From: a bacterium
GTDB taxonomy: Bacteria > Patescibacteriota > Patescibacteriia > UBA1558 > S5-K13
Assembly: GCA_029555085.1 (NCBI GenBank)
Contig: JAKPTO010000026.1
Location: forward strand, 37,217-101,216
Direction of reading: 5' to 3'
DNA length: 64,000 nt
Part shown: positions 33,635-64,000 of the stretch, in pieces
Layout of the letters: every line of letters begins with the position of its first letter
How positions within the stretch are numbered: position 1 is the first letter of the stretch
Program-made: the position numbers and the translations under genes
Notes under the pieces: model-generated
Databases searched by the model: none
Seen by the model: only the letters and a program-made list of their open reading frames with translations
Told to the model about the DNA's origin: nothing

Positions 33635-36600
33635 TTATTTTTTATATAAAGTGGAAACAAATCTTTGCATTCTGTCATTCAATACATCTAAAGCAATTCT
33701 TGTACTTTCTGGTGCGTTTTTTGGTATGCTCTTTAATGTGAGTTCCCAAAATTTTATCTCAAAATTATTTAACTTACTACTACCTGTTCTTTCCAGCTTT
33801 ATATCGCTTAATAATTTAAATGCTTTATCGTGTACAATGTCTTTATTAGCACTCTCCGTAATTATTCTATATAATTCAGTACCTCGTTCTCGGCTATAAA
33901 AAAATGTTCCAACTGAACTAACATCTGATGTCTGTTTAATAATGGAACCATTTTCATCAAATACTTGTTTAAGTGTTCCGCTTCTTCCCGCCTCCTTAAA
34001 AGTAACGAGCTTTGTATAATCATCGAGCCATTTCTCTGTTATTGTTCCTGTATTTGTTTTTATAATTTCTATATTTGGCTCGGAAATCAATTCTTGAAAA
34101 TTATTCTCTGTAATTTGCTCTAAGCCGGGACTTTGTGGATCAAGATCTGCATAATATTCCCCATGGTCTTTTTGAATTTCCAACACCCGATTATTACCAA
34201 CATTCGTTTCAAATTTAACTGGAATATTGTCTTCAACATCTTTCAATGCCTCTTCCAACTCAGAAAATGTATTAACTCTTTTAACTCCTAGTATCTCTGT
34301 TTGATTTTGAGCTATAGGCACACGATCTAATATATCTTCGACAGGTGTCCGTCCTGATATACCTTTGGTAGGCACATGATCTGGCTCAATAGTCAAATTT
34401 TGAACTGAGGATACTTGGTCTGATATATCTTCTATATTTGACTCAGAAATCAATTCTTGAAAATTATTCTCTGTAATTTGCTCTAAACCAGGGAGATTAG
34501 GATTAAAGTCTGTGTAATATTCTCCATTGTCCTCTATAATCCGTACAACATTACCACCAATTTCTACATCAGCCGAAGCACCTGCCTCTTTAAACTGAAA
34601 TACTTCTTTCAAATCAGAAAAATCCCTAACCACTGGAACCTCTGATGTTTCTATAGGTACATTAGTCAATGTATCTGGGGTGACTTCTATACTTTCTGTA
34701 GGTACATGATCTAACATATCTTCAGTGGGTACATGATCTGGTTTAATAACTGGGATTTCTGTATTACCATTATTAAACTCATCTTGCAACCTCGCTATTT
34801 GAAAATTTAACTCCTCTCCAGTATTTTGCTGTTGTGAAAGTAATTCTCGAGTTGCATTTAGTTCCTCAGATATCTTCGCTTGTATATTGGATGGAATATT
34901 TGGATCATCTAGCATTTCTTCTAATCTGGTAATTGATAATTTTGACTTTATTATATCATCATTTAACTCAAAATATTTACTTTGTAGCTCTTCTATTTGC
35001 TCAGGATAATTTGACTTAACTATATCTTCTACGGGTAGCACTTCTCTTACATTTGTTGGTCTGACAATTTCTGAAACATTAGGACCATGTTTGGGCTTAA
35101 TGACGCCCATTACATTATCTACATAATGTTTGTAAAAACTTTCATAAGACTTGGGTTTGACAAAGGCAAAAACCTCGTTAGTTTCTGGATCAACGACAAC
35201 TCTTGCTCCCGGCGCAACAACATTTGCATCAAAATTTTTAAGAATCAATGGTTCGCCATTAGGTCCAGAAGTAACAAGTGTCATTTTTGAACCACGAGGC
35301 ATGCTTATACCCAAAGTTTCAGAAACACTAGAGCCCTTAGCTACTGGAACGCCTTGATCTGCCAACTCTTGAATACGTTGAGGGTTCAAACCCTTAATAT
35401 CTTGAAAATTAGATACATCTGATTTTTTTGGAGAAAAACTTTGTGATGCCTCATTTATATCATCCGCTCGACTTGTTGAGATAACCTGATCTTTTTTACC
35501 AAAAACAGAGTTCTTCAAATTCTCAAAAGACTTTCCTAATCTCTCCATTCTTGAAACTATATCAGCATAACTTACAAAATTATCTTTCATGTTTTCCAAT
35601 ACATTACCCTGAGTAAATGTTTTGGTAAAACATTGTACCATGTTATCCACACTTGCACCAGATGTTTGTATTCCTGATAAAGCTTGCGTTCCCATACCAA
35701 GAGCCATTAATAATTCCCCCCAAGCTCTCATCATGGTAGTTTTTTTATCAAAACCTTTTAATTTTCTAACATCACTATGTTTTTTTAATTTATCATTTTC
35801 TACATAAAAACTTGATTCATATCGTTTTCCAGATAATCCATAATATGTTTCTAAAAACATTGTTTTAAATGCATCTCCAAGATATTGATGTGCTTTCATT
35901 TTTTCGCCAACCTTATTCCAGGAATATTCCTTTTGATATTTCAATGCTGATTTATCTAATTTTCCACCAAATGCAAATATTCCATACATAGCACCTCGAA
36001 GTCCAGCCGCACCTATCCCGCCACCAAAAACCATAGCCGTATTAAGTGCATCTTTTACAAGTATACTTCCATTTACTGTTCCTTGTATATAATCTTGCAA
36101 AATATAATCTATTTTTTTTGACCTTTGTTTTCTTAAATCATTTTTTGATTCCAAATTCGTAAGTAGAACTTTGTTTAATCTATTTCTCATTGTCATCTGA
36201 TCATGATCAGAAATAATATACAATAACTTTTCTTTATCTGTTAATGAACCTTCGTTAAACTTTTTTTCTATTTCTTGTCTTTTTTCTTTTGGTAAATCAT
36301 AATAATTCTGAGATCTGGCATTCTTTATCATTTCATTATATTGCATTGCTTTTTCTTTTACATCATCTACAGAAATTTTTTCATTTTTTATAAAATTTTC
36401 TCTAATTTTATTATTCTCCATTGAAAGAGTTTTTATTTTACGCTCTAATTCTTCTCTTTCTGTTTCATCTTTTGTGTTTTTATATATCTCTACATATCTA
36501 GATATTGCAGCAACTCTTCTTTTGTAATTATCATCTTGGTAAAGCTTCTGAAATTTTTCCTTATTAGAAGAAATCAACTCTGCTAAATCGCTTGTTTTCT

Positions 36601-39296: not shown

Positions 39297-40073
39297 TTAT
39301 TTTAATAATAAATTATACAATTTTTTATATTTTTTGTCAATAAATAAAAAATAACTCGCAAATAATATAAAAATTAAAGCCATTATTTGCGGAAATCTAA
39401 TTCCGAAAATATGAAGTGTTGTATCAATTCTTAAAAATTCCATAAAAAACCTAATAATTCCATAACCAAAAACATACAACAAAAATATTCTTCCTTCTTT
39501 GTAATGTCTCTTAAATACTCTCATTAGTATAAAAAATAAAATTAAATTTAAAATAAATTCATATGCAAATATGGGATGATGATGAAACCCTGTTTTTTGT
39601 ATATATATTGCCCATGGCACATTTGAAACTTTTCCATACAATTCTGAGTTAAAAAAATTACCCCATCTCCCAATTGCTTGCCCAAGTGGAACAACAAGAG
39701 CAAAAATATCTAAATATTTTAGCGAATTCAATTTATGCTTTTTACAATAAAAATAAACAGTTAATATTCCAGCTATTATTGCTCCTTGAATTGCTATACC
39801 GCCACGCCAAATTCTAAAAATCTCCCAAAAATTATACTTATAATATTTAAAATCGAAAAACAATACTGAGTAAATTCTAGCCCCAATTATTCCAAAAATT
39901 ATAATATAAAAATATAAATTTTCTAAATGATTTTTATCAATTTCACTGCCCCTGGATAATCTTTCTATTAAATACATACACAATAAAATACCAAAAACTA
40001 CTATAATTCCGTAAAAATATACATTGATTAACCCAAGGCGCAGTAATATTGGATGTGGATTTGCATTTATCAT
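39297..40073 (-). CDS. lgt: Prolipoprotein diacylglyceryl transferase
   Basis: Multi-TM protein with the Lgt signature GIIGARIY...GNFFNSELYG and overall Lgt topology. Length 258 aa. Confidence 0.7.
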   Translation of the reverse strand: MINANPHPILLRLGLINVYFYGIIVVFGILLCMYLIERLSRGSEIDKNHLENLYFYIIIFGIIGARIYSVLFFDFKYYKYNFWEIFRIWRGGIAIQGAIIAGILTVYFYCKKHKLNSLKYLDIFALVVPLGQAIGRWGNFFNSELYGKVSNVPWAIYIQKTGFHHHPIFAYEFILNLILFFILMRVFKRHYKEGRIFLLYVFGYGIIRFFMEFLRIDTTLHIFGIRFPQIMALIFILFASYFLFIDKKYKKLYNLLLK

Positions 40074-40783
40074 TGATTTGTTGTATTTTTAATTGCTTCT
40101 AAAATTTGTTCCCAAATTTGTTTATTTATAACACCCTGAAATAACTCCCCGTTTACAAAAAATGTTGGCGCTCCATTTACACCCGCTTTCAAGCCCAATT
40201 GAACATCAGAATAAATAAGGGATTCATATTTTTTCGAAAGATAACAGTCTTTAAATTTATTAACATCAAGATGAATATCCTTTGCAAACTGCATAAATGC
40301 AGATTCTCCTAAAATTCTCTGATTTTCAAATAATTTATCGTGCATTTCCCAAAACTTTCCTTGTTCATTTGCACAGCTTGATGCTAATGCGGGAGTTATA
40401 TCATCCGATATTGGAAAATATCTGTATATTAATTTTACACTATCTTTATTATCATTGACAAAATTTTTTAAATCTACATATGCAGACAAGCAGTATGGAC
40501 AATTAAAATCTGAAAACTCAACTATCGTCATGATTGGAGATGAGGCCCCTCTCTGAGGAGAAGTTTTAGATTCCAACTCTTCTCTTTTAACTTTTTCTTT
40601 TGGGGTATTTGATGTGTTGCTATATGCAGAATAAAGAGTTAAGTCACTATTATGCATAATAATTGAACCGTCTTCTATTGCTTTTTTATAATCAAATACT
40701 TTTTTGACAAATAAAATAGCTACTGTCAAAAAAAAGATTAAAAAAACCCCTAAGAATATATGCCATTTTTTAATTTTAATCAT
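40070..40783 (-). CDS. DsbA-like thiol:disulfide oxidoreductase (membrane-anchored thioredoxin fold)
   Basis: N-terminal TM helix, CxxC active site (FNCPYC), and a DsbA-like C-terminal helical insertion. Confidence 0.7.
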   Translation of the reverse strand: MIKIKKWHIFLGVFLIFFLTVAILFVKKVFDYKKAIEDGSIIMHNSDLTLYSAYSNTSNTPKEKVKREELESKTSPQRGASSPIMTIVEFSDFNCPYCLSAYVDLKNFVNDNKDSVKLIYRYFPISDDITPALASSCANEQGKFWEMHDKLFENQRILGESAFMQFAKDIHLDVNKFKDCYLSKKYESLIYSDVQLGLKAGVNGAPTFFVNGELFQGVINKQIWEQILEAIKNTTNQ

Positions 40784-45350: not shown

Positions 45351-45911
45351 TTATTTTATATAATTTCTTGCACTTACTGTTGTTTGTAATAAAATTTCTG
45401 CACCATCTCTATTATCAACAAATGTCATAACAATTGTTACAAGTGTTTGCTTGTTTAAATCCCCAGCAAGCTTTTCTGTTGATATAGTTGGGCTAATATA
45501 AAAATACATATCTTTCACGCTAACACTATTTCCAGTTACATCACTCCAACCAGAATCATTATATTTAACTTGCAGAAAAGTATTGTTTTTTCCTCCAACT
45601 AATTTTACTTGTTTTCGAAAAAAAATCTTATTACCGGAATTATCTTCTAGAGCCAACTCTGTTATTGGGTTTTTTACTGTAAAATCTGGATAATAAGAAT
45701 AATCAACATTACCCAATCTTACTTCTCTAGATATATAATCCATTGCGAACCTCATCTCATTTTGTACCCTTTGCATTGCTATAATCTTTGTATTTGCCTT
45801 CATTGTTAATATGTACACACCAATACAAATCGTTGAAACAATACTAAAAATAGCAGTCGCGACAATCATTTCAAGTAATGTAAATCCTGGTTTTTTATAT
45901 ATTTTTTCCAT
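45351..45911 (-). CDS. Type IV pilin-like protein (prepilin N-terminal methylation motif)
   Basis: KPGFTLLEMIVATAIFSIV is the class III signal peptide G|FTLxE. Confidence 0.7.
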   Translation of the reverse strand: MEKIYKKPGFTLLEMIVATAIFSIVSTICIGVYILTMKANTKIIAMQRVQNEMRFAMDYISREVRLGNVDYSYYPDFTVKNPITELALEDNSGNKIFFRKQVKLVGGKNNTFLQVKYNDSGWSDVTGNSVSVKDMYFYISPTISTEKLAGDLNKQTLVTIVMTFVDNRDGAEILLQTTVSARNYIK

Positions 45912-45922
45912 AAATTAAAATA

Positions 45923-46582
45923 CTATTTCCAATTATATATCCTTTCTTGTATCTGGGTTGTTTTGATCGAACCTCCATCGTTCCAACCAACTAAAGAAGT
46001 TACCTGTAGGCCTATAAAATTTGTAGGATCTTCGCATTCTGATTCTGGTGATGTATTAATTATTTCATCTTCCCATTCATCATTATAACAAATCGCATCT
46101 ATATATATTATTCTATAAAAATTAGCATCCGACAATTGATAAGAATCTAATCCCTCCATAGAATCTTTATGAACATATATTTTTTGATTTGGCGATTCTT
46201 CTGGCCAAGCTAAGAACAATTTACATTGTCCAGTCTCAAGACATTTATCCCAAGGTATGCTAATGTATTCTAAAATATATCCATCTTGATCTTCCCTGGG
46301 ATACTTATTATCTAATATAAATGTTCTTGAATCTCCATCAATTGCTAAATCCGGTAATAATCCACTGCTCCACGCTAATCCATCAATCCAATTTGAATCT
46401 CTTATATTTCTAACAACTTCCACTCCTTCTCTGGCTAAGTTCGTGGCTTTAAGCATATTATGATTGAAACGCTCAACCCTAAGATTCGCCACAACTAAAT
46501 TCATAATAGATAAAATACCTACCACTGCTATATAAATAGCTATTACTACCTCCAATATTCCCTGTGCTTTACTTTTTTTCAT
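45923..46582 (-). CDS. Type IV pilin-like / pseudopilin
   Basis: N-terminal AQGILEVVIAIYIAVVGILS hydrophobic helix with a conserved Glu. Confidence 0.5.
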   Translation of the reverse strand: MKKSKAQGILEVVIAIYIAVVGILSIMNLVVANLRVERFNHNMLKATNLAREGVEVVRNIRDSNWIDGLAWSSGLLPDLAIDGDSRTFILDNKYPREDQDGYILEYISIPWDKCLETGQCKLFLAWPEESPNQKIYVHKDSMEGLDSYQLSDANFYRIIYIDAICYNDEWEDEIINTSPESECEDPTNFIGLQVTSLVGWNDGGSIKTTQIQERIYNWK

Positions 46583-46584
46583 AT

Positions 46585-47166
46585 TTAATTATTTAAAAAT
46601 TCAGACCATGTTTTACCAGAACCTGGAGTAATGTTTATTACCCATTTCCCCGGTGCCTTAGTACTGCCTAAAAATATCTGACAAGACAAAACATTTTCAT
46701 CTTTATTTTCATCTATAATAATAGACATTAAACCTTTTGGCATTGAAAAATTAATATCTAATGATTCTAATTCTTTTTCTTCGTATCCAAGTTCTGATTC
46801 ATCTTTAATTTTACACCGTAACTGATCAAAATAAAACTGACTTTCTAAAATATTTTCTGAATAAATTAAATTTTCATTATAAAAACCATAAACACCAATA
46901 TCTGCGTAAATATTATATGAATATGAACCATTTACATCCTTTAAAAAAATTATTCCATAACCATTAATAGGTACTGTATTTTGAATTTTTTGACCTGTTA
47001 GTGAAAGATTTTTTGTAAATCCTATTGAATCTTCTATGTCATAAGCTGTTAAACGAAATTCATTTATTCTTCTTGTATATCCATAATCAAGAATAACAAC
47101 ACTTAAGAGAATTACAAATATACCAATCGCAACTACAACCTCTATTATTGTAAAAGCTTTTTTCAT
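46585..47166 (-). CDS. Type IV pilin-like / pseudopilin
   Basis: MKKAFTIIEVVVAIGIFVILLSV is the prepilin motif. Confidence 0.65.
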   Translation of the reverse strand: MKKAFTIIEVVVAIGIFVILLSVVILDYGYTRRINEFRLTAYDIEDSIGFTKNLSLTGQKIQNTVPINGYGIIFLKDVNGSYSYNIYADIGVYGFYNENLIYSENILESQFYFDQLRCKIKDESELGYEEKELESLDINFSMPKGLMSIIIDENKDENVLSCQIFLGSTKAPGKWVINITPGSGKTWSEFLNN

Positions 47167-47960
47167 ATAATTAATAAATTAATATACCAATTCAATAATT
47201 GCTCTCCGAAAAGAAAAGAAATAAACATTGCAAAAGAAATAAATGGTCCAAGAGGAATTTTTAATTTAGTTTTTTCTTTTTTAGATTTAGATAATAAAAG
47301 AAAAATACCAATTATTGCTCCGGAAAAGTAAGTAATCAATAACGCCACAATTGTAATTTTAAATCCCAAAAGCGCACCCATAAAAACCCCGAGCAATATG
47401 TCTCCACTACCAAGCCATTTTCCTTTTGAAATAACATATTGTATACCAAAAAAAATTACTCCGAGAACAATCCCATAAAAAATATTTAAAATATTATTTT
47501 TCATTATTAAATTAAAAATAATAGATAAAACTATCCCCAAATAAACTATAAAATCCACTATTAAATAGTATTTCAAATCATAAATAAATATAAAAGACAA
47601 AATAAATACAAGTATTAAATAAAATATAAAGCTAATAATTAATTGACCATGAAGCCAAAGTCCAGAAACAAAGAAAAACCAATATCCGAATGAAAATAAA
47701 ATTCCTAGAATTACCTCAACAAAAAAATTCTCAAATTGAATCTTTGATTTACAATATCTACATTTCCCAAGTAAAACAATGTAAGAAAAAACTGGAATTA
47801 AATCTAAAATCCCCAATGTTTTTTTACAATTAAGACAATACGATCTATTAAGTATTGATTTTTCTTCATTTATTCGATAAATCAAGCAATCTAAAAAACT
47901 ACCAAAAACAGCCCCTAAAATAAAAAATAGTATATAGAACATACCATTATTATAGCACAA
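47163..47960 (-). CDS. pilD: Prepilin peptidase (A24 family, PilD-like)
   Basis: N-terminal Cys-tetrad Zn-binding region (CLNCKK...CRYCKSKI), multiple TM helices, and a catalytic Asp context. Confidence 0.75.
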   Translation of the reverse strand: MCYNNGMFYILFFILGAVFGSFLDCLIYRINEEKSILNRSYCLNCKKTLGILDLIPVFSYIVLLGKCRYCKSKIQFENFFVEVILGILFSFGYWFFFVSGLWLHGQLIISFIFYLILVFILSFIFIYDLKYYLIVDFIVYLGIVLSIIFNLIMKNNILNIFYGIVLGVIFFGIQYVISKGKWLGSGDILLGVFMGALLGFKITIVALLITYFSGAIIGIFLLLSKSKKEKTKLKIPLGPFISFAMFISFLFGEQLLNWYINLLII

Positions 47961-47996
47961 AATCTCGGATTATAATATTTATATTTTCATCCAAAA

Positions 47997-48614
47997 TTAC
48001 TTCAAAATTGTACCTGTTTTTATATACCAGATATAAATATCTAACTCTCCCTGACTCATATCCAATTTTTTGCATATTTTATGCATTTTTTTCTCTATTT
48101 CAATATATCTCTTTGGTGTTAATGTTTTATATTCAGCTATTATTCCGTTATCAATCAAACTACTAATAATATGCCTATCTAAAATAGCATAATCAAAAAA
48201 ACCAACATTTCTTAAAAAATGCGACGATTCCTTCATCCCAAGACCTTTTATATTTTTCAAAAGCCACATTCTTTTATCATTTTCTTCTAATAAAATATCT
48301 TTGATGTTTTTATACTTTCTTGCCAAAACAATACGATTCGCGCGTTGAGGCCAAAATCTATGACCTGATTTTTTCAAAAATCTTGCTAATTTTTCTTCAT
48401 TCCAATTTAAAAAACCATTCGGAGTTAATTTTTTTTGAATTTCAATTGACTCTTTTGCTTTCCAATTTGAAGTTAATAAACAATAACAAAGTTCAAAAAA
48501 CCATTCATTGTTTGATTTTTTGTTTAAAATTAAAAAATCTTTTAATCTTCTATCAATTTTATTTTTGATTTTTGATTTTCTTATTTCTTGAATTTTGTTT
48601 ATTAATTTTTTCAT
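47997..48614 (-). CDS. ogg: N-glycosylase/DNA lyase, archaeal-type 8-oxoguanine glycosylase (Ogg2 family, HhH-GPD)
   Basis: The stretch KSNNEWFFELCYCLLTSNW...GHRFWPQRANRIVLARKYKNIKDIL...NIKGLGMKESSHFLRNVGFFDYAILDRHI...YIWYIKTGTILK gives a near-collinear match to the MJ0724-type Ogg. The probable start is the internal Met (MKKLINKIQEI); the ORF-track start at 48686 would overlap nth by 128 bp. Confidence 0.65.
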   Translation of the reverse strand: MKKLINKIQEIRKSKIKNKIDRRLKDFLILNKKSNNEWFFELCYCLLTSNWKAKESIEIQKKLTPNGFLNWNEEKLARFLKKSGHRFWPQRANRIVLARKYKNIKDILLEENDKRMWLLKNIKGLGMKESSHFLRNVGFFDYAILDRHIISSLIDNGIIAEYKTLTPKRYIEIEKKMHKICKKLDMSQGELDIYIWYIKTGTILK

Positions 48615-49269
48615 AATGTAAACAATAATTTTTAATTTTACAAATATTACATTTTGGACCAATTGGCCTACAAATATTTTGACCAAACAATACTAATACA
48701 AAATTTATTTTTTTCCAGTACAACTTATCTAAATTTTTTCTTAAAAACATTTCGGTTTCATACGGAGTCCTTGTGTTTAAATATCCAATTCTATTTAATA
48801 TTCTATGAACATGCGTATCCACACAAATTGCTGGTTTTTTTAAAACTGTAGAAATATATAAATTTGCTGTTTTTCTCCCAATTCCTGGAAGTTTTATAAG
48901 TTCATCGATAGTTTCCGGAATTTTAGAATTGAAATCCTTATTTAAAACAAAACATAATTTTTTTAAATTTTTTGCTTTTGTTTTATAAAAACCAACTGGA
49001 TAAATCAATTTTTGTATTTGTAGATTTGTTAATTTTTGCAAATCTTTACAGTTGCTTACTTTTTCAAATAATCTTAATGATGACTCAAGAGTTGTTTTGT
49101 CTTTTGTTCGTGACGATAAAATTATTGAAATTAAAATCTGAAAATTGTTAAATTTTTTAGAATACAAAAAATCAACAGCAGGAAGTTCAAATTCACTAAC
49201 CTGCTGTGACAATAAATCAAGTATTTTTTCTATTTTTACTTTGATTTCCATAATCCATGAAGATTGCAA
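48559..49269 (-). CDS. nth: Endonuclease III
   Basis: HhH-GPD region (LPGIGRKTANLY...VDTHVHRI) and C-terminal 4Fe-4S cluster C-x6-C-x2-C-x5-C (CRPIGPKCNICKIKNYC). Confidence 0.8.
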   Translation of the reverse strand: MQSSWIMEIKVKIEKILDLLSQQVSEFELPAVDFLYSKKFNNFQILISIILSSRTKDKTTLESSLRLFEKVSNCKDLQKLTNLQIQKLIYPVGFYKTKAKNLKKLCFVLNKDFNSKIPETIDELIKLPGIGRKTANLYISTVLKKPAICVDTHVHRILNRIGYLNTRTPYETEMFLRKNLDKLYWKKINFVLVLFGQNICRPIGPKCNICKIKNYCLHYEKINKQNSRNKKIKNQK

Positions 49270-51554: not shown

Positions 51555-53235
51555 ATTTTTGCTGATAAGTTAAATAATTATTATTTTCTTTTGAAAATAC
51601 TATAATAATAGAATCTTCAAGTTTTTCACTTAATATTTCTATTATTTTTATAATATCATTATAATTCAAATCAATCCAAATATTGTCAATAATAATAAGT
51701 TGTTTTTTATTAACTATGCAATGGAGCGCTTGAAGAGCAAAGCATGAAACATTATTATTAAAAGCCAACACACAAGAAGAATTAACATTATTTATAGAAG
51801 ATATTTTTGATGCAATAAATTGATTTTCAGATATTACCTTGATCACATTTTCAATTTCAGAAGAATTAATTTGTTCTTTATCTTTCCCTAAAATAAACTC
51901 CATCAAACTTTTTTCTGAAAATATTTTAGGATCGAAAAAATATGCGCCACAGAATAATTTTTGCCATATTGGATAATCATATCTTTTATTGTCTATTTTC
52001 ACCTTCATTGCCTTGGGATTATAAATACGCATTCCTGCAAAAATTTTAGCCAAACTTGTTTTTCCTGAAAAATTCTCTCCAAAAAATAAAATTCTTTCTG
52101 ATTTTTTAAAATGAAAATCTAGATTTCTGAAATATTTACCATCTTTAAATAATTTTGTTTTTTTTGCGTGAAACAATATTTCATTATGAATTTTTAAAGT
52201 ATTTTTTCTACGCAAAACTGCTCCTTTTTGCAATACTGTTAAAAACAAACCCAATCTTGCTGGAAAAAAATATAAACCAACTCTTAGCGCTTGATTAAGT
52301 GTTCTTGGAAAATAGAACATTAAAAATAAAAATAAAAATCTATTATCTCTACCAAGTAAATTTATAAAAGAAAAAAACTCATTTGTAAAAAAATTGCTTA
52401 AAATTACAATTATCAAAACTATCACAAATACAATTTTTGCGCTTATTCCAATCCAAAGATTTCTTCTAATGCGAAAAAAAGAATCTATATTAACAAGACG
52501 ATCAAACTTTTGTAGCACACTATCTTCATTATTAAAATTTTTATTAAAATATTTTTCTGATAAGCTAATATCGATATGTTTTATTATTTGTGAATAAAAA
52601 GTGACTTCTTGCGAAATATATTTTTTTGCAACATAATAAGCTATTATTCCTATAAGAATAGAAAGTGCCACGAAAAAAACGAAAACAATAAATAAATTTA
52701 ATCCTATTAAATATGCAATGAGCATTGCCACAGAAAAATATATGAACCATCTAATTATTCCAAAAAAAACAATTGATACACCCATTGAAACAAGCGATAA
52801 TTGATAAGAAATTTTTGCTATTAACCTACCCTGCCTTTCGTTGTTCATTGTTTCAACGGGTCTATCAATAAATGATTTAAATATTCTGCGCCTAATATCA
52901 TTTGCAAATAATACCACAATAGTTTTTTCTTGTTTTATAGAAAAAAATGAACTTATGATAAACAACAATATAAAAATAGCAAAAAATTGCCAAAAAAATG
53001 GGTCTAAAATACTATTTAGCTGAGATAATTTATTTCTACTAAATACAATAAGAAACGCTTCTATTACACAGGAAACAAAAATTAAAAGAACAAGACGCAA
53101 AATATAAAATTTATATTTTTTAAAAAAATCTCGTAAATACCCGTAATGTAAAAACGATAATTTTATATCTTTGTATTTATTCCTTGTTTTTCTAATTTCT
53201 TTTATTAATCTAATTTGTTCTTTTATTTCTTTCAT
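51520..53235 (-). CDS. ABC-exporter-like protein (6-TM domain plus degenerate nucleotide-binding domain)
   Basis: TMD followed by Walker A GENFSGKTS. No recognisable LSGGQ signature. Walker B is LIIIDN (Asp-Asn, not Asp-Glu). The H-loop His is not evident. Overlaps the RT gene by 26 nt and the PLD-like gene by 35 nt. Confidence 0.55.
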   Translation of the reverse strand: MKEIKEQIRLIKEIRKTRNKYKDIKLSFLHYGYLRDFFKKYKFYILRLVLLIFVSCVIEAFLIVFSRNKLSQLNSILDPFFWQFFAIFILLFIISSFFSIKQEKTIVVLFANDIRRRIFKSFIDRPVETMNNERQGRLIAKISYQLSLVSMGVSIVFFGIIRWFIYFSVAMLIAYLIGLNLFIVFVFFVALSILIGIIAYYVAKKYISQEVTFYSQIIKHIDISLSEKYFNKNFNNEDSVLQKFDRLVNIDSFFRIRRNLWIGISAKIVFVIVLIIVILSNFFTNEFFSFINLLGRDNRFLFLFLMFYFPRTLNQALRVGLYFFPARLGLFLTVLQKGAVLRRKNTLKIHNEILFHAKKTKLFKDGKYFRNLDFHFKKSERILFFGENFSGKTSLAKIFAGMRIYNPKAMKVKIDNKRYDYPIWQKLFCGAYFFDPKIFSEKSLMEFILGKDKEQINSSEIENVIKVISENQFIASKISSINNVNSSCVLAFNNNVSCFALQALHCIVNKKQLIIIDNIWIDLNYNDIIKIIEILSEKLEDSIIIVFSKENNNYLTYQQKYELGDEIRKIT

Positions 53236-54427
53236 AATGAAAGTCTAAATAAAAATTATATAATGATTTTATTTTTAAATATTCTATCTCTTTTCTTAAC
53301 AACCTTCTGTTGCGTGGTGAATATTTACCAAATATAAAATCTGTTAAAATACGGAAAAAATCTTCTGATAATTTTTTTATTTGTTCTGAGTTATTGATTT
53401 GTGGTTTATCTTTTATAATTTTTTGAAATTGGTAGTTAAAATTTTTTTCTGGATGTCCCATAATCCTTCTCAGTAAATACTTTTTTTTACTTAAATTATA
53501 ATTTTTATATTTTAAAATACTTTTCCAACCAGCAATAATACGCTTAATATATGATTTTTCTAAACTAATAATTCCTGAATTAAAGCAGTAGCCTAAAAAA
53601 GAAAAATTTTCTTTTGCATCACCAATAAATAATTTGCTATTATTTATTGTTAAATTTCTAATATTCAAATCTTTGATAATTTCTAATTTTAATTTATTTA
53701 GCTTGTCTATGTTATTATCAAAAATACCTATATCATCTCCTATTCTTATATAAAATGAACATTGTTTTTGATATTTATGATCAAGGTCTGTTAAATATAA
53801 ATTATTAAAAAGTGCTATTAGTGGAACACCCTGGACAAGACCTATATCAGGTGCTTCTATCTTACCATTTTTATATATTTTATTAAAAATAAATAATTTT
53901 AATAAATCTAATATTTTTCTATCTTCAAAAATGTTTTCCAGTTGTGAGTATAAAACATTCTTATCAATCAAGTCAGAATAGTTTTCCAAATCTAACACTA
54001 ATGCTTTGTCTGTAGAAAAATTTTTCCTATATCTATGGCAAAAATTTTTTGCTGCAAAATATGGTGGCTTGCCCGGCCTATATGAAAACAATCTTTTTGA
54101 AAAAACTTTTTCAAATTCTGGTAATAAAACTCTATAAATTGCCTGTGCTTTTATACGATCTTTTATATTATAAATAAAAATATCCCTGAATTTCTCGGGA
54201 TTATTTTTTTTAGGAATTGAAACAATAAGTGCTGGCTCAATTTCCCTATTTTCAACTAATTCTTTTTGACAAATATCTATAAGCTCCTTTGAATTTAAAT
54301 CTCTGTCTTGTATTGAAATATTATCCAAACCGTGATATCTAAAACTTTTACTATCTATAGAAAATTTTTCCACTATATCTAAATAAGCAGATCGAATATT
54401 ATCATAAGATACAATTTTATTAAACAT
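53210..54427 (-). CDS. Free-standing reverse transcriptase (group-II-intron-like / unclassified bacterial RT) with atypical 'IGDD' catalytic motif
   Basis: Motif 1 SIPKKNNPEKFRDIF. Motif 2 RIKAQAIYRVLLPEF. Motif A LVLDLENYSDLID. Motif B GLVQGVPLIALFNNLYLTDLD. Motif C FYIRIGDDIGIF. Motif 7 FSFLGYCF. Thumb/X-like IIAGWKSILKYKNY. Confidence 0.7.
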   Translation of the reverse strand: MFNKIVSYDNIRSAYLDIVEKFSIDSKSFRYHGLDNISIQDRDLNSKELIDICQKELVENREIEPALIVSIPKKNNPEKFRDIFIYNIKDRIKAQAIYRVLLPEFEKVFSKRLFSYRPGKPPYFAAKNFCHRYRKNFSTDKALVLDLENYSDLIDKNVLYSQLENIFEDRKILDLLKLFIFNKIYKNGKIEAPDIGLVQGVPLIALFNNLYLTDLDHKYQKQCSFYIRIGDDIGIFDNNIDKLNKLKLEIIKDLNIRNLTINNSKLFIGDAKENFSFLGYCFNSGIISLEKSYIKRIIAGWKSILKYKNYNLSKKKYLLRRIMGHPEKNFNYQFQKIIKDKPQINNSEQIKKLSEDFFRILTDFIFGKYSPRNRRLLRKEIEYLKIKSLYNFYLDFHYERNKRTN

Positions 54428-58157: not shown

Positions 58158-59570
58158 TTATCTACCGATTCCCTTTCTTGCTATATTCTCAAATCCTAAT
58201 TCTTTGCATTTATTATAACGAGCTAATTTTAAATTACCAGTAGAAATAGCCCACTGACTCGTTGTGCCTCCAGCATATCTTCTAAAACAAAGTTCCAAGT
58301 TACCATCTTTACAATACTGATGTTTCCATCCTAAAACAAAAGCTTCTAAATTAGAATCAATAGTTAATAATGAATCAAAACTAAAACACTTATTTTGATA
58401 TATAAAACCATTATTATTATTACATAAAATATCTTGTTTAGAATGGTAAGTAATTTGACCCAAACCCAATCCAAATGTATAACCTTTTTTATTTATATAG
58501 TTTTTCCAATTAGAAATAGAGACCCCTGGAATATTTTTATCATAAACATACTTAGAGCAATTAGGATTATTACACAACTCTCTTTTATTGCTATTAATTT
58601 TTCCTGCCAACCAATCCTTGCAACAAGAAGGATAAAGATTACATATATGTGCCCTGCGAGCAATAATATCACAAGCCGTGTCTCTAGTAACAGCCGAGTC
58701 ATTGCCAAATGCTCTTGGGTCTCCTCCTGATTCTTGATGAATTACAGCATAATAAATACACTCATCTATATTGTTCCACTTAGCAGACTTTTGAATACCA
58801 ACAATTACTTCCTCAGAAAAAATATGACTATCACCAACAGATTTTATATTAGACCCAGATCCAATATAAGAACCACTACTAGCTAATTCATATCTATCAA
58901 CTTCAATAGGTATAATCTTCTCCACCTTTATTGGTACTATATTCAACAAGGCTGGATTTATTGTTTGGAGTATCAAAACAGAAGAAACGCATAAAACAAA
59001 CCCTATTAAAGCATTTTGTAGTCTTGATTTAGCTTCCCCTATTTTACTCTGATTTCCTCCTGCTAATACCCACTGAAAACCAGCCAATATTATTGCTAAA
59101 ACAGCCACGATTCCTGATAAATATATTAAATATCTAAAAAGTACTACTAAAAAATCTCCAATCAAAGCACCGCTTACCTCTACTTCACTTCTAAAACCTG
59201 GTATTCCGACTTCTGGAGTAAATGATATAGATTTTGGTTCCCCAGGAGTTTCATCTACGCCTTCATTTGAATTATTTTGACAATCAGAAGCCCATTGTTT
59301 AATAGCCTCCTGTTTATAGTGATTACGAAATTCAATATCATGCACAACTTCAGCTGGAAATCCAGCTGCCGTATTCTGCAACTCCCTATCCATCCAAGTC
59401 GTATACAAACCCTGATAATCAACGCTAGATTTATTTAAATCAGTGGCCGGACAATAACTCGGCCTTAAGTATTTTAAATTGGGATCATCCGGTAACTGTG
59501 CCTCTACGCCTCTAAAAAAAAACAGAAACGCTACACTAAAAATAAATAAATATCTCCTTATCTTATTCAT
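58158..59570 (-). CDS. Secreted/membrane protein: TrbC/VirB2-like pilin-type hydrophobic hairpin fused to a lytic transglycosylase (SLT/VirB1-like) domain
   Basis: Signal peptide. Two long hydrophobic helices (ALIGDFLVVLFRYLIYLSGIVAVLAIILAGFQWVLAGG and ALIGFVLCVSSVLILQTINP). SLT motifs VIHQESGGDPRAFG (catalytic Glu-Ser) and GLGLGQIT. Cys-rich. Confidence 0.5.
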   Translation of the reverse strand: MNKIRRYLFIFSVAFLFFFRGVEAQLPDDPNLKYLRPSYCPATDLNKSSVDYQGLYTTWMDRELQNTAAGFPAEVVHDIEFRNHYKQEAIKQWASDCQNNSNEGVDETPGEPKSISFTPEVGIPGFRSEVEVSGALIGDFLVVLFRYLIYLSGIVAVLAIILAGFQWVLAGGNQSKIGEAKSRLQNALIGFVLCVSSVLILQTINPALLNIVPIKVEKIIPIEVDRYELASSGSYIGSGSNIKSVGDSHIFSEEVIVGIQKSAKWNNIDECIYYAVIHQESGGDPRAFGNDSAVTRDTACDIIARRAHICNLYPSCCKDWLAGKINSNKRELCNNPNCSKYVYDKNIPGVSISNWKNYINKKGYTFGLGLGQITYHSKQDILCNNNNGFIYQNKCFSFDSLLTIDSNLEAFVLGWKHQYCKDGNLELCFRRYAGGTTSQWAISTGNLKLARYNKCKELGFENIARKGIGR

Positions 59571-59574
59571 ATTT

Positions 59575-60237
59575 TCATTTGATAATTGATTTTATAATAT
59601 TTTCCAAATTTTCTTGAGTTATCTCACCTTCAAATTTTTGTTGATTTATAAAAATTGTTGGAATTTGCTCTACTTTAAGCACATATGCCTCCACTATATT
59701 ATTATCTATATCTTCCAAGTACTTCTGCGAAGAATAACATGATACAAATTTATTTGTATCCATTTTTAATTTTTCTGAAATTCTTTTATATAAATCTAAA
59801 GAAAATTTTTCATCGGTATTTAGTAACTCATTATTATATTCCCAATATTTATCCTGCTCAAGAGAACAACGAGCCGCTAGAGCTGAACCCTTTGAAAAAA
59901 TATTTGTAGAAAGTGGCAAATCTTTCCAAACCAAATTAACATCTTTTGGATATTTTTTTATTATTTCATCTATAATATTCAAAATATTTTTTGTTTCACT
60001 TGTTTCATAATCAGTAAATAAATAAATACTAACCTGTGTATTCCTCTCTCCTTTAATTGGATCATTTATAAATGATGATAATAAATATTTTTCTTGGGTC
60101 GTGGTTTCCACAATTTGCTTTTCATTTTTAATTTTTATAATCTTATAAAAATTAAACAAATTATAAAATAAAAAACTAAGACCTATTAGAATAAAAATCA
60201 TTACAATAATTGAAATTATTTTGTCTTGCTTGTTCAT
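59575..60237 (-). CDS. DsbA-like thioredoxin-fold membrane protein lacking the CxxC active site
   Basis: N-terminal TM helix and DsbA-like layout, but the expected CxxC position reads FTDYETSE (no Cys). Confidence 0.4.
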   Translation of the reverse strand: MNKQDKIISIIVMIFILIGLSFLFYNLFNFYKIIKIKNEKQIVETTTQEKYLLSSFINDPIKGERNTQVSIYLFTDYETSETKNILNIIDEIIKKYPKDVNLVWKDLPLSTNIFSKGSALAARCSLEQDKYWEYNNELLNTDEKFSLDLYKRISEKLKMDTNKFVSCYSSQKYLEDIDNNIVEAYVLKVEQIPTIFINQQKFEGEITQENLENIIKSIIK

Positions 60238-60265
60238 TTTTTTATCAAATATTGAATATTAAATT

Positions 60266-61501
60266 TTATTTCAAATCAATACTATATAGATACCCAGTAG
60301 ATGAATCTATATAATACATCTGTGAATCATTCTGATTCGTATATATCTTATCTATTGAAATTCTATTATTATTTACCATTGGCTGGGCAATTATTTGCTG
60401 ATTTCCTGTTGATATATTTATTTTATAAATAGAATAAGGAATTCCACTTGCTAAACCCGGATTAAGCCCAGCTCCTCTTGGCATAGAATCTGGCACAGCA
60501 CAATAAACAACATCATTATTTGATTGACTAAAAGAACATTTATTTATCCAGGTATTTATTCCCATAGATACCTTCCCATAACCCAAATCGTCTCCCTGAC
60601 CATTTGCAAACCACAAAGTTGGCTTAAAATCGCTTCTCTGTGATGTAACATTATATAGAAGTTTATCGCCTTGCGTATTCCACATACCATCAAAATTAAA
60701 ACCATCAACAACCAATGATCTTAAATTTTTATCATCTTCATTGATAAAATATATTTCCTGTCTTTCTAAATCATATTGTTTTCTAAAGGTTGCCATCACC
60801 TCGCCATTTGGGCTCCAAATATTTTTTATATTCCTTGCCTGATCAGCTATCGGCCTTATAAATTTGAAATTACTCGCGTCTGAATTAGAAGTGACTAAAT
60901 AATTCTGATCTTCATAATCACCCATCCATTTATAAGACAATTTATCACCTGTTTCAGAAAAAGCAAAGTCTTGAGTTTCTTGTGGAAATCTTGCTATAAA
61001 TTCTTCTCTTTCAAAATCATACAATACTTTTGTATTATCTGGATATTCTAAAATTGCTTGATTTTTTGTGGGTGAAAAAGTTGCATTAGTTACAGAATAA
61101 AATTTCCTATCAGATAATTTAGAAATAGTACCATCCCCTGAAACCTTGAAAAAACTCTGATTCAAATTATCATAATACACAACTCCATTATTTACTGCGC
61201 TATAAGTGTTTATGCTTGCTATATTTTTACCAACAACTTCTTGAGAATTTGTTACTAGCTCTTCATCTGTTCCCATAATTTCTGGTTTAGTTGTGATAAT
61301 TGTCTCGCCTCCAGTATCTATTATCTGCGGACCACCAATACCAACATCTGGAAACCCTACATCACTAGGCGTGGTATCAATTGGTGAAGAAATTGGTTCT
61401 TGCTTTCTTGCAAAAAATGTAAAATAAATAAGAAAAGCCATTCCGATACTAACCGCTAAAAAAAGTAATATTAAAATTATTTTTTTTGTATTTTCAGGCA
61501 T
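60266..61501 (-). CDS. Membrane-anchored extracytoplasmic beta-rich protein (possibly beta-propeller), hypothetical
   Basis: N-terminal TM helix, then about 370 aa rich in Gly/Asn/Tyr/Asp repeats (TolB-like flavour). Confidence 0.3.
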   Translation of the reverse strand: MPENTKKIILILLFLAVSIGMAFLIYFTFFARKQEPISSPIDTTPSDVGFPDVGIGGPQIIDTGGETIITTKPEIMGTDEELVTNSQEVVGKNIASINTYSAVNNGVVYYDNLNQSFFKVSGDGTISKLSDRKFYSVTNATFSPTKNQAILEYPDNTKVLYDFEREEFIARFPQETQDFAFSETGDKLSYKWMGDYEDQNYLVTSNSDASNFKFIRPIADQARNIKNIWSPNGEVMATFRKQYDLERQEIYFINEDDKNLRSLVVDGFNFDGMWNTQGDKLLYNVTSQRSDFKPTLWFANGQGDDLGYGKVSMGINTWINKCSFSQSNNDVVYCAVPDSMPRGAGLNPGLASGIPYSIYKINISTGNQQIIAQPMVNNNRISIDKIYTNQNDSQMYYIDSSTGYLYSIDLK

Positions 61502-61619
61502 TGTAATTTTATTATTTTATAAAATATTTAAATTAATTTTTTATAATTTATCATCAATCGCCACCAAATATTGATAAAAAATACTATCCATTCTTTCACA
61601 GTTAAACTTTTCAACGTTT

Positions 61620-62513
61620 CTAAGTAACCCCTAGTAAATCCCCTATTGCAGACTTTAGTAAGTCTAATAAATCTTTTATAGCATCGATAGGATCTGTTAA
61701 AATATACCCTATTAAAAATAATAGTAAAAATATAATTGTCAAAAGTGCTATAATTATAGCTCCTATAAGAACAAAAGCTATCATTGCTCCATGGTTCATT
61801 TTATCCTTACCTTCTAATATTTCTTTTGTCGCTAGGGCTGGATTTGTTATAGAAACAAAATGACAAAATAACTGACTACCCATTATATATTTACCTATAA
61901 AATGAAATGCCAAATAAAACCATGTTAAACCATAACTATCGATTAAATGTTCATAAGAAAACTTATAGGCGGCAAAAGATGCTAACTTTAATTTGTTTTT
62001 AGCTTTTGTTTTAGCATCAGCTGCCTTTTTCTTAATATTAGCAATTCCCTGTCCTAATTTACTATTTCTTAATTTCTCTTTTTGTCTTTCTAAAAATCTT
62101 GCCTTTTGTTTTGCCTGTTCAAGAGCTGCTTTTGGATTTTCATCTGGATCAATGGTTTGAGAAATTTCTGAATTATCATTCTGAGCATTGACATTATCTG
62201 AATTATCTTGATTTGTATCTGATTGCCTGTAGTCTGGTTGTTGATTTATTGCACCAATGGTACTTAAAGGTAAATCGCTATTGCTTGGCCTAACTAATCC
62301 ACTCTCACCCTCTCTTTTCGCAGTCTCCCTACCCTGTCTTAACTGTGAAATAGGCCCCCTTAAATCTTCTGGGGTCGACGCCTCTTCCAAAAATTCTGTT
62401 CCATATTTTATAGAGGATTTAACTCCCCCAGTAATACCACCAACTTCATTTCTAACTGCACCAGCAACAGTTTTAAAGCGTCTCCCAATAGTTGATGATG
62501 CTTTACTTGGCAT
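61620..62513 (-). CDS. Hypothetical protein with charged N-terminal region and C-terminal TM helices
   Basis: ORF of 297 aa with a C-terminal hydrophobic hairpin (MIAFVLIGAIIIALLTIIFLLLFLIGYIL). Confidence 0.3.
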   Translation of the reverse strand: MPSKASSTIGRRFKTVAGAVRNEVGGITGGVKSSIKYGTEFLEEASTPEDLRGPISQLRQGRETAKREGESGLVRPSNSDLPLSTIGAINQQPDYRQSDTNQDNSDNVNAQNDNSEISQTIDPDENPKAALEQAKQKARFLERQKEKLRNSKLGQGIANIKKKAADAKTKAKNKLKLASFAAYKFSYEHLIDSYGLTWFYLAFHFIGKYIMGSQLFCHFVSITNPALATKEILEGKDKMNHGAMIAFVLIGAIIIALLTIIFLLLFLIGYILTDPIDAIKDLLDLLKSAIGDLLGVT

Positions 62514-62517
62514 AATA

Positions 62518-63081
62518 TTATTTCCATGAAACAGAATCTACTAACCATTTATCATTTACAAAAACTAATGACAAATCTGCTTTTTTATAAAAAGTTGCTT
62601 CTTCTCCGTTTTTCGATTCTATTTGCTGTAATTGAAGAGAAACAAGCGCCGAATTATTATCTAACTCTAAAATCGTTGCATTTATAAGTTTAGTAGTTAT
62701 TCCATAATAATTTTTATTATCTGAAAAATTAGCATTACTTGATATATAATTTTTTGCCTGACTATACATATGATCAGTTATCATTGGAGAAATAAGTTCA
62801 TAAAAATCTTCTGTTTGATTTGACCACGATCCATAGCGTTCTATAAAATTTCTCGCAGTTTCGATTACTAATGAATTTTCATCAATTTTTGCATTAGATT
62901 CAAATTCTAATGAGTTAAATTCTTCTTTTTTAGGTTCTTCCATAACCTGCTGTGGCGGAATCTGATCCTCTGGTTTTATAATTTCCTGTTTTGGTTTTTT
63001 AAAAAATATAATTAAAAAAGTCAGCAATATAATTATTATTAAAATAACCAAGATAATTATTTGTTTTTTATTTATTTGCAT
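62518..63081 (-). CDS. Single-pass membrane protein, hypothetical (T4SS-module neighbour)
   Basis: N-terminal TM helix (IIILVILIIIILLTFLIIFF) and a periplasmic domain of about 140 aa. Confidence 0.3.
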   Translation of the reverse strand: MQINKKQIIILVILIIIILLTFLIIFFKKPKQEIIKPEDQIPPQQVMEEPKKEEFNSLEFESNAKIDENSLVIETARNFIERYGSWSNQTEDFYELISPMITDHMYSQAKNYISSNANFSDNKNYYGITTKLINATILELDNNSALVSLQLQQIESKNGEEATFYKKADLSLVFVNDKWLVDSVSWK

Positions 63082-63113
63082 ACAATTTTATTTCAATTAA
63101 TTATTATATTAAA

Positions 63114-64000
63114 TTAATTTTGAATCCTATTTAATTGTTCAAATTCTTTTTTTGCGGCTTCTATTTCAAGTAATTGTCTTGGATCTGATGTGATTAGTTG
63201 ATCCTCTGTGTACGATGCTTCAATTTGAATAGCAACATGTTTATTTCCAGCAAAAAATATTCCCTGACCAACTTTTCCTTGTAATAATAAATATTTTTCT
63301 TCCTGGGTTAATAAAAATGTTTTTTGTATTAACTCAATAGCCGCTGGAGATTGTTTTAATAATAATTGCAAAGCCGAATTTGTAACTATTGCTTGTCCAT
63401 ACGGAGAAATCAAGAAATCATTCACATCCTGAGTTATAGTTGTCACTCCTAAATAATATTTTCTACATCTTTTGACAAGTGAAAAAATAAACTTAGCGCT
63501 ATCTTCGTGTTGCATTAACCACCAAGCCTCATCAATAATTAATATTCTTTTTTTCATACTTGACCGAACTATATTCCATATATAATTTATTATTGTATAA
63601 ATTGCTATAGGACGAAGTTCATCTTCTAAATCTCTAACACTGAAAACCACTAACTGATTTGATATATTAACATTGGTTGGGCTATTAAATAATCCGGAAA
63701 ATGTTCCTTCTGTATATTTTTTAATTCTCTGAGCTAAATTTTCTCCCCCCTGAATTCCTTCTAAAACTTCCTCAAAATCTTTCATAAGTGGAGATTCTAT
63801 ATTGTCTATATCACTGTCTTCAGTTATATCTTTTTTTGCGTATGTTTCTACTAATGCTCTATCAACAATTGAATCTTCCAGATGCGTCAAATCTCCAACC
63901 ATTAATCTAGTCAATCCCTTTAGAGTTATAACTGCGCTTCTTATTATATCACCAATTCTCATTTCCTTTGTAAGTCCACGCGGTAAATCAAATGGATTTA
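63114..64000 (-). CDS. VirB4/TrbE-family type IV secretion ATPase, C-terminal portion (N-terminus beyond window end)
   Basis: ILIIDEAWWLM (Walker B-like DEAW), RKYYLGVTTITQDVNDFL and IVTNSALQLLLKQSPAAIELI match the VirB4 C-terminal ATPase region. The frame stays open to position 64000. Confidence 0.5.
   Translation of the reverse strand, partial: NPFDLPRGLTKEMRIGDIIRSAVITLKGLTRLMVGDLTHLEDSIVDRALVETYAKKDITEDSDIDNIESPLMKDFEEVLEGIQGGENLAQRIKKYTEGTFSGLFNSPTNVNISNQLVVFSVRDLEDELRPIAIYTIINYIWNIVRSSMKKRILIIDEAWWLMQHEDSAKFIFSLVKRCRKYYLGVTTITQDVNDFLISPYGQAIVTNSALQLLLKQSPAAIELIQKTFLLTQEEKYLLLQGKVGQGIFFAGNKHVAIQIEASYTEDQLITSDPRQLLEIEAAKKEFEQLNRIQN

Follow-up and report, generated by a model that had tools for sequence, protein, structure and literature searches.

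The window, by which we mean the whole 64,000-nt stretch analysed, ends in six open reading frames (58158..>64000) that all lie on the minus strand at the coordinates given in the preliminary description, separated by intergenic gaps of 4 to 118 nt (Table 1). The virB4 frame stays open up to the window edge (63114..>64000), and its continuation can be read on an identical 127-kb metagenome contig, L001. Gene order on L001 is a 359-aa protein without an assigned family, a PrgI/VirB3-like protein, a TrsD-like protein, VirB4, a 187-aa bitopic protein, a 297-aa membrane protein, a 411-aa anchored protein, a DsbA paralogue without CxxC, a fusion of a pilin hairpin to a lytic-transglycosylase-like (SLT) domain, and radA; the 359-aa, PrgI/VirB3-like and TrsD-like genes lie directly upstream of virB4, beyond the window. 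Promoter and terminator counts in the module equalled those in shuffled sequences, and the scan is therefore uninformative on operon limits. Around the reverse-transcriptase gene, no DGR-type repeats emerged beyond AT-rich chance matches.

Table 1. Features of the module and of the second DsbA paralogue (window coordinates, except where contig L001 is named).
Feature	Position	Strand	Match or motif
VirB4 ATPase, C-terminal 295 codons	63114..64000 (runs past edge)	-	P-loop_TraG 4.5e-18
187-aa bitopic membrane protein, N-terminal TM, ~120-aa external domain	62518..63081	-	TM within aa 1-32
297-aa protein, long disordered polar N-terminal region, C-terminal hydrophobic segment aa 238-279	61620..62513	-	
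411-aa N-terminally anchored extracytoplasmic protein	60266..61501	-	
DsbA-fold protein, 220 aa, membrane-anchored, without CxxC	59575..60237	-	FTDY-ETSE-T; Thioredoxin_4, DSBA
Fusion, 470 aa: signal peptide, variable N-region, VirB2-like hairpin, linker, Cys-rich lytic-transglycosylase-like domain	58158..59570	-	
VirB2-like two-helix hairpin, aa 132-212 of the fusion	58935..59177	-	basic loop AGGNQSKIGEAKSR
Lytic-transglycosylase-like domain, aa 250-470 of the fusion, 12 Cys	58161..58823	-	E280-S281, G367-L-G-L-G-Q372-I-T374
Second DsbA paralogue, 237 aa, adjoins lgt	40070..40783	-	intact CPYC
PrgI/VirB3-like protein, two TM segments	L001 3409-3846 (beyond window)		PF12666

The truncated gene had been described as the C-terminal ATPase region of a VirB4/TrbE-type protein whose N-terminus lies outside the window, and the complete protein bears this out. 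It is 621 aa long (L001 4592-6457), matches P-loop_TraG at 6.4e-30 and passes the curated NCBIfam cut-off of NF045971, 'VirB4-like, CD1110 family' (355.9 bits vs 325, E 4.5e-106). Its Walker B motif (RILIIDEAWW) lies inside the window and its Walker A motif (SGAGKS) beyond 64000. The score above the curated threshold of a VirB4-specific model led us to reject an FtsK/HerA-type identity for the protein. The sequence beyond 64000, where an FtsK context or a lack of other T4SS components would have counted against VirB4, instead holds the PrgI/VirB3-like and TrsD-like genes and no FtsK context. The PrgI-like protein scores just above the PF12666 cut-off (27.9 bits vs 27) and aligns with PrgI of pCF10 (hhalign E 9.9e-5). 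The TrsD-like protein, a separately encoded copy of VirB4's N-domain, matches NF041427 TrsD at 2.3e-8 (under its curated cut-off) and VirB4_plasma (residues 99-246) at 5.1e-10, and has a precomputed PF26593 match. Among the genes called in the 64-kb window and in 6 kb beyond it, none encodes a VirB6/PrgH-like polytopic channel protein, a relaxase or a VirD4/TcpA coupling protein, and hhalign of the module's family-less proteins to PrgH gave E 0.08 or worse.

Between virB4 and the dsbA-like gene lie the three co-directional genes that had been called membrane proteins without a known family, a description that holds: each product has a hydrophobic anchor and no family match of its own in Pfam or NCBIfam. 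The 187-aa protein, also without a PDB family match, is encoded directly after virB4 in all related loci, and its hhalign alignment with PrgL of pCF10 is co-linear over 106 columns at a non-significant E of 0.02-0.05; by position, size and topology only, it is a candidate VirB8/PrgL-like protein. The 297-aa protein is encoded by the fastest-evolving gene of the module, with orthologues 28-44% identical and 222 to 328 aa long. The 411-aa protein belongs to a family widespread in Patescibacteria (102 homologous clusters), some members of which carry precomputed matches to PF07676 (PD40), PF26549 or PF26550, and its relatives suggest that it is probably a PD40/TolB-type beta-propeller. PDB profile searches with the 187-aa and 411-aa proteins returned nothing useful.

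The next gene encodes a DsbA paralogue that was said to have lost both active-site cysteines, and the alignment agrees. The 220-aa protein passes the cut-offs of Thioredoxin_4 (60 bits vs 23.2, 4.1e-16) and DSBA (30.3 bits vs 25.6, 4.3e-7) and keeps the cis-Pro loop and a Cys124/Cys167 pair, and the CxxC motif is absent from all 15 of 15 orthologues. It is 26% identical (E 8e-20) to a second paralogue in the same window, which the preliminary description had missed; ETSE stands where that protein has CPYC, which rules out the 220-aa protein as a functional DsbA. The intact paralogue is probably the real disulfide oxidase of the cell.

The fusion gene is the only PF18895 gene in the window, and its product combines the two parts first proposed for it, a VirB2/TrbC-like hairpin and a VirB1-like SLT domain (ES...GLGQIT). 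A profile search settled the first part directly: the hairpin matches PF18895 T4SS_pilin over aa 145-203 of the 470-aa protein, at 35.3 bits against a cut-off of 26.6. The SLT domain stays below the gathering cut-off of PF01464 in the fusion itself (13.4 bits vs 21.3, E 0.058), and still does so when the Cys-rich insert, 62 aa with six cysteines between SLT motifs I and II, is removed (19.0 bits). Its assignment comes from relatives. Among 102 protein clusters at 50% identity, 30 match Pfam SLT (best 1.8e-9), and in at least 71 the SLT-like domain is fused to a pilin (T4SS_pilin is matched in 71); a distant orthologue, in locus L017, passes both the SLT (27.5 bits vs 21.3) and the T4SS_pilin thresholds. 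Across 110 sequences, E280, S281, G367, G369, Q372 and T374 are each at least 90% conserved, and E280-S281 and G369-L-G-Q372 are invariant in a 5-sequence alignment. An AF2 model was built on 102 sequences (a 5-sequence model reached a pLDDT of only 46), and aa 250-470 are predicted to have a lysozyme-like fold. Foldseek matches of the domain are weak (E 0.13 or worse), as is a match to IagB, and PDB sequence searches with the full-length fusion profile and the insert-excised domain gave nothing useful. Taken across the family, sequence comparison shows aa 250-470 to be a predicted lytic-transglycosylase fold with its catalytic motifs in place. The fusion contains 15 cysteines, compared with 0-2 in every other protein of the module.

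Module order is kept, between housekeeping genes, in at least eight MAGs. Radical SAM and methyltransferase genes flank it on one side and radA and recG on the other; in loci L002 to L012 it sits between the methyltransferase gene and radA-recG, and VirB4 is 77-91% identical to that of the window. A Parcubacteria MAG (L018) still shows the core gene order, and the 411-aa gene adjoins the pilin gene both there and in L017, which carries the pilin-SLT fusion without the CxxC-less DsbA. We consider it likely that the region makes up the distal two thirds of a Patescibacteria-type T4SS operon that is carried on the chromosome, inherited vertically and related to the MPF-FATA conjugation machinery of Gram-positive bacteria. 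It corresponds to the known, apparently non-conjugative system of the phylum, which resembles MPF-FATA and has genes for TrsD, VirB3 and VirB2-like pilins close to virB4 (Quinonero-Coronel et al. 2025, PMC12102498).

We envision that VirB4, docked on PrgI and TrsD, would power the building of a membrane channel, perhaps together with a short VirB2-type filament. The hairpin would be inserted with both ends outside, as the signal peptide and the basic, presumably cytoplasmic, loop suggest, and would hold a transglycosylase rich in disulfides on the outer side of the membrane, at the point where the machine has to pass through peptidoglycan; so placed, the fusion would supply the VirB1 function that is reported mostly missing in the phylum. 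The intact DsbA probably oxidises the 12 cysteines of the domain, and the CxxC-less paralogue, encoded 4 nt upstream of the fusion, is probably a redox-inactive chaperone or assembly factor, by analogy with what has been proposed for TraF of the F plasmid. We infer that exchange with a host bacterium upon contact, and not conjugation, is the most likely role of the system. The preliminary description had likewise favoured host interaction or uptake, and this fits the housekeeping flanks, the missing relaxase and coupling protein (T4CP) in the window and its flanks, the phylum survey (PMC12102498) and work on Southlakia epibionticum, which cannot grow epibiotically without its T4SS and pilins (Wang et al. 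2023, PMC10633639; PMC12857230).

Close relatives carry different Cys-rich C-terminal domains where the window has its SLT-like head. One group, marked by 'GPCHCAC...GH', has weak NlpC/P60, Amidase_5 and DUF1287 matches and includes L006, whose VirB4 is 90% identical to that of the window; protein P0006 has a VanY/M15-like domain (Pfam 7.2e-4, LAS motifs aligned to YodJ); and several relatives have non-enzymatic Cys-rich modules. The alternative heads probably include papain-like and M15 wall peptidases. Such variety raises the possibility, which we consider unlikely, that the hairpin is a display scaffold with interchangeable heads aimed at the host bacterium and not at the symbiont's own wall, the T4SS extruding or presenting pilin subunits whose wall-degrading or wall-binding domains breach or grip host peptidoglycan. 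Swaps of enzyme specificity between near-identical machines would be unexpected if the own wall were the target, and reviews have floated the idea of a pilus as a conduit to the host. However, the non-SLT assignments are sub-threshold matches and a PDB profile search with the papain-like domain found no match, Gram-positive T4SS hydrolases, PrgK among them, are assumed to cut the wall of the donor, and it is doubtful that subunits with 250-aa heads can polymerise. A broader and rather doubtful proposal is that Patescibacteria possess a polymorphic 'armed pilin' system built on their VirB2-like pilins, in which a conserved hairpin assembled by the T4SS would bear swappable disulfide-rich heads, a lytic transglycosylase in this locus and, in close relatives, probably a papain-like amidase, an M15 peptidase or Cys-rich binding modules. 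These heads would be shown to the host wall and open it for exchange of nutrients or macromolecules, the redox-dead DsbA being a dedicated chaperone in one clade. If true, this would explain the apparent absence of VirB1 from the T4SSs of the phylum.

Another reading, which we regard as improbable, is ComB- or Ced-like uptake, in which the machine would bring in host DNA or nucleotides. Nucleotide synthesis is lacking in Patescibacteria and their T4SS has been put forward as a route of uptake (PMC11665869), and VirB4 also matches the CedB model (1.8e-15); that match is nevertheless far weaker than the one to the CD1110 family, no Ced- or ComB-specific partners were found, and the locus gives no sign of transport direction. 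It is very unlikely that the fusion and the CxxC-less DsbA are general envelope-maintenance proteins that stand beside T4SS genes by chance. In L017 the block of p411, pilin-SLT and radA does lie 10 kb from virB4, but the hairpin belongs to a T4SS pilin family, adjacency to virB4 is retained in nine loci, and pilin genes lie close to virB4 in 1135 assemblies of the survey (PMC12102498). That the module is part of a conjugative element (ICE or plasmid) transferring DNA, as a VirB4 of the CD1110 conjugative family and conjugation-type PrgI and TrsD might suggest, is scarcely credible and was rejected, given the same housekeeping flanks in genomes with a 77-91% identical VirB4, the lack of a relaxase, T4CP or integrase among the genes called in the window and its flanks, a uniform GC composition (~23-37%) and the rarity of relaxases in the phylum-wide survey (PMC12102498).

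As a T4SS, the module is ordinary for the phylum. The role of the essential T4SS and pilins is among the main open questions on how ultra-small episymbionts live off their hosts, and pilin-SLT fusions and apparently swapped hydrolases offer testable candidates for the wall-crossing step, whether through the symbiont's own wall or the host's. The pseudo-DsbA points to a new accessory factor.

Compared with described Patescibacteria (CPR) T4SSs, the locus shares chromosomal location, an MPF-FATA-related VirB4 with TrsD and PrgI/VirB3 immediately upstream, a PF18895 pilin gene near virB4, and the lack of a nearby relaxase or T4CP. It differs in having a single pilin-type gene, with a lytic-transglycosylase domain, and a CxxC-less DsbA paralogue in the operon, and in that no VirB6 was recognised; the survey reports a similar VirB6 gap in several classes and rarely detected VirB1 (PMC12102498). 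That survey mentions neither the fusion nor the CxxC-less DsbA, and we did not find these two details described in the literature searched, whereas this kind of T4SS is already described. The MPF-FATA prototype, Prg/Pcf of Enterococcus pCF10, shares the CD1110 VirB4 family, a PrgI homologue and the order VirB3, VirB4, then a wall hydrolase and a small bitopic protein. In contrast, pCF10 has a VirB6-like PrgH, the T4CP PcfC, a relaxase and adhesins but no pilin, and its hydrolase PrgK is a plain TM anchor with SLT and CHAP domains; hhalign of the two SLT domains covers 10 columns only, at the GLGLGQ motif. Another monoderm T4SS hairpin protein, the Mycoplasma ICE family NF045849 ('Mbov_0395 family pilin-like conjugal transfer protein'), weakly matches aa 147-204 of the fusion (1.4e-4, below cut-off) but measures ~80 aa and lacks an enzyme domain. 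TraF of the F plasmid, a CxxC-less thioredoxin-fold pilus-assembly protein (PMC11315126), resembles the 220-aa protein as a T4SS accessory beside a redox-active paralogue (TrbB), a functional analogy only: TraF is periplasmic and belongs to a diderm MPF-F system, and the 220-aa protein has no TraF-family (PF13728) match at E 0.1 or better. Finally, the predicted transglycosylase shares the catalytic Glu-Ser and GLxQ motifs of family 1 GH23 enzymes (Slt70, MltC, MltE, MltF; VirB1, EtgA, IagB) and stands apart from them in its six-Cys insert, its 12 cysteines in all and its fused pilin hairpin.

The six ORFs of the module that resembles a type IV secretion system (T4SS) lie where the preliminary description had placed them, all on the minus strand and tightly packed (gaps of 4-118 nt), with 63114-64000 open through to the window edge; GC content is about 28% throughout the window, and the module shows no compositional break. 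The 470-aa pilin-SLT fusion is encoded, identically, on an ENA metagenome contig (ERZ27249272 k141_704445; 127 kb), and 76 blocks of the collection record it, a sign that the organism is often sampled. Beyond window position 64000, this contig carries radical-SAM and methyltransferase genes, p359 (a 359-aa protein that matches no family), a 145-aa protein with two transmembrane segments, a 223-aa protein and the complete, 621-aa VirB4. VirB4 scores 355.9 bits against a curated cut-off of 325 for the NCBIfam CD1110 family of monoderm conjugative ATPases, in agreement with the identity proposed from its C-terminal part, and RefSeq gives the same family name to PrgJ of the Enterococcus plasmid pCF10. 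The 145-aa protein scores above the PrgI cut-off, and a profile of it aligns with pCF10 PrgI (E 9.9e-5); the 223-aa protein has matches both to TrsD and to the N-terminal region of mycoplasma VirB4. An FtsK-like context devoid of other T4SS parts can therefore be dismissed, because the upstream genes are VirB4-, PrgI- and TrsD-like. Of T4SS components, this extension supplied PrgI/VirB3-like and TrsD-like genes; VirD4, VirB6 and a relaxase were not among the genes examined.

Features of the window, with coordinates and strand
Feature	Position	Strand	Remarks
Two giant ORFs	14813-20356, 33635-38758	both -	1847 and 1707 aa; no precomputed Pfam match
tmRNA	21522-21912	+	Rfam, 91 bits; smpB nearby
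tRNA	23196-23269	+	Rfam
863-aa protein	30155-32746	-	Peptidase_M23, two CBM_4_9 domains, Por_Secre_tail
Second DsbA paralogue	40070-40783	-	237 aa; intact CPYC (FSDFNCPYC); directly upstream of lgt (39297-40073)
Type IV pilus cluster	45351-48686 region	-	Prepilin peptidase (Peptidase_A24), then several small proteins, one with N_methyl signal
Reverse transcriptase (RVT_1)	53210-54427	-	405 aa; between recG and ABC-like gene
Pilin-SLT fusion	58158-59570	-	470 aa
Cys-less DsbA	59575-60237	-	220 aa
p411	60266-61501	-	
p297	61620-62513	-	
p187	62518-63081	-	
VirB4, C-terminal part	63114-64000	-	

The locus order (methyltransferase, p359, PrgI, TrsD, VirB4, p187, p297, p411, Cys-less DsbA, pilin gene or genes, radA, recG) recurs in at least eight MAGs whose VirB4 is 77-91% identical to that of the window, and in one Parcubacteria MAG the core genes, PrgI through p411, still follow this order. 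The remainder of the window holds housekeeping genes and a type IV pilus cluster, and a search of these genes for VirD4, VirB6, a relaxase or an integrase found none. We therefore reject a mobile element, given this recurrence and these absences; the module is a chromosomal, vertically inherited system.

The fusion was described as joining a VirB2-like hairpin to a VirB1-like SLT domain, a reading that holds for both halves. By hydropathy, its N-terminal part comprises a signal peptide and a pair of long hydrophobic helices with the basic loop AGGNQSKIGEAKSR between them, a predicted VirB2 topology with both ends outside. The pilin model (PF18895) matches above threshold. The protein's own SLT match is weak, because its Glu-Ser and GLGLGQIT motifs are parted by a 62-aa six-cysteine insert. 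When this insert was excised from four members, SLT was the sole Pfam match in three and the better of two in the fourth, all below threshold. A profile search with the C-terminal domain collected 109 representatives at 50% identity; among the 102 scanned, 71 match T4SS_pilin and 30 match SLT (best 1.8e-9). Conservation reaches 90% or more of 110 sequences at E280, S281, G367, G369, Q372 and T374. A distant orthologue, likewise neighboured by p411 and radA, passes both Pfam thresholds. An AF2 model built on 102 sequences of the family reached a mean pLDDT of 81, with values over 90 in the hairpin and close to 95 across residues 250-470, and Foldseek with this model listed the same enzyme families with weak E-values.

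In several relatives, the C-terminal domain fused to the hairpin (the head) is a different one. The locus L006, whose VirB4 is 90% identical to the window's, and the proteins P0005, P0008 and P0012 carry at the same position a head with invariant GPCHCAC, GD...H and WH and weak, sub-threshold NlpC/P60, Amidase_5 and DUF1287 matches; the head of P0006 is VanY/M15-like (sub-threshold), its LAS motifs aligning to YodJ, and further relatives have Cys-rich heads without enzyme signatures. We treat these non-SLT assignments as leads. All heads are rich in cysteine, which likewise seems to be new: those delimited contain 8-28 cysteines each, whereas other module proteins contain 0-2, which provides a rationale for a Dsb-type partner. 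Such exchangeability of heads between relatives seems to be new, and swapping between near-identical machines favors, if thinly, the host wall over the symbiont's own as target.

Some relatives carry two pilin genes in tandem at this position. Both genes of L002 (8483-9958 and 10001-11389) encode pilin-SLT paralogues, which share 32% and 46% identity with the protein of the window; in L011, 4518-6017 is a full-length pilin-SLT paralogue (35%) and 6047-6715 ends with the contig after the hairpin. Saccharimonadia are reported to have pilin arrays, of which these are small-scale counterparts. In one relative (L007), an AAA_14/DUF4143 ATPase gene (10732-11928) separates the pilin gene from that of the Cys-less DsbA, so this junction tolerates insertions. 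Several MAGs with this typical Patescibacteria locus (L004, L007 and L009-L012) are titled 'uncultured Gammaproteobacteria bacterium' in public records, almost certainly a mislabel.

The three middle genes each encode one hydrophobic anchor and have no relative in Pfam, NCBIfam or PDB, in line with their earlier description as membrane proteins of unknown function. p187 (187 aa) has the position and topology expected for the VirB8-like PrgL, its sole long co-linear alignment among pCF10 T4SS proteins (E 0.02-0.05, not significant). Conservation among the three is highest for p411 (411 aa): its homologues form at least 100 clusters in Patescibacteria, and some of these have PD40-type propeller matches. 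p297 (297 aa) is the module's fastest evolving gene.

Elsewhere in the window, the tmRNA and single tRNA are the only Rfam matches. The type IV pilus cluster is distinct from the T4SS module. The two giant ORFs may encode episymbiont surface proteins or adhesins, and the 863-aa protein is, from its domains, probably a further secreted wall hydrolase; its Por_Secre_tail is unexpected for a monoderm CPR genome. No DGR-type template/variable repeat pair was found at 44-64 kb, around the reverse transcriptase; in the Parcubacteria locus, RVT_1 and bAvd, which likely make up a DGR, lie at a distance of about 5 kb from the T4SS.

Overall, the preliminary observation is confirmed and its interpretation supported, and the system belongs to a published kind. 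A 2025 survey of this T4SS class found VirB4 allied to MPF-FATA, TrsD, VirB3 and VirB2-like pilins near virB4, and relaxases rare; VirB1 was seldom detected, and the pilus was thus said to seem not to need it (PMC12102498). Tn-seq shows that Southlakia epibionticum cannot do without its T4SS and the pilins of this system (PMC10633639; PMC12857230; PMC11665869). The fusion and the Cys-less DsbA are two features not described in the literature searched, being mentioned neither in PMC12102498 nor in full-text searches. What seems new is that VirB1 function may sit hidden in proteins scored as VirB2. Building on the established parts list, topology, conserved catalytic motifs, redox-site loss and chromosomal context, we envision that VirB4, PrgI and TrsD would drive assembly of the hairpin protein in the membrane, that the tethered transglycosylase would cut peptidoglycan where the apparatus crosses a wall, that the intact DsbA would oxidise the head with its dead paralogue as chaperone, and that the T4SS would mediate exchange with a host rather than conjugation.

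The 220-aa protein has a DsbA/thioredoxin fold by Pfam, and alignment of the two window DsbAs places ETSE opposite CPYC, bearing out the loss of both active-site cysteines; a redox-active DsbA and a T4SS-linked Cys-less copy thus occur together in this genome. None of the 15 orthologues, the most distant at 40% identity, has CxxC, yet all keep the cis-Pro loop and the Cys124/Cys167 pair, arguing that the loss is old and that selection maintains the protein for another role. It belongs to a small family (14 clusters; nine of 185,579 GTDB species representatives), whose titled records are Patescibacteria or Ca. Komeilibacteria. A family search did not place it in the TraF family. A precedent for such a Dsb-type partner is TraF of the F plasmid, a pilus-assembly factor that has a thioredoxin fold, lacks CxxC and coexists with the redox-active TrbB (PMC11315126).
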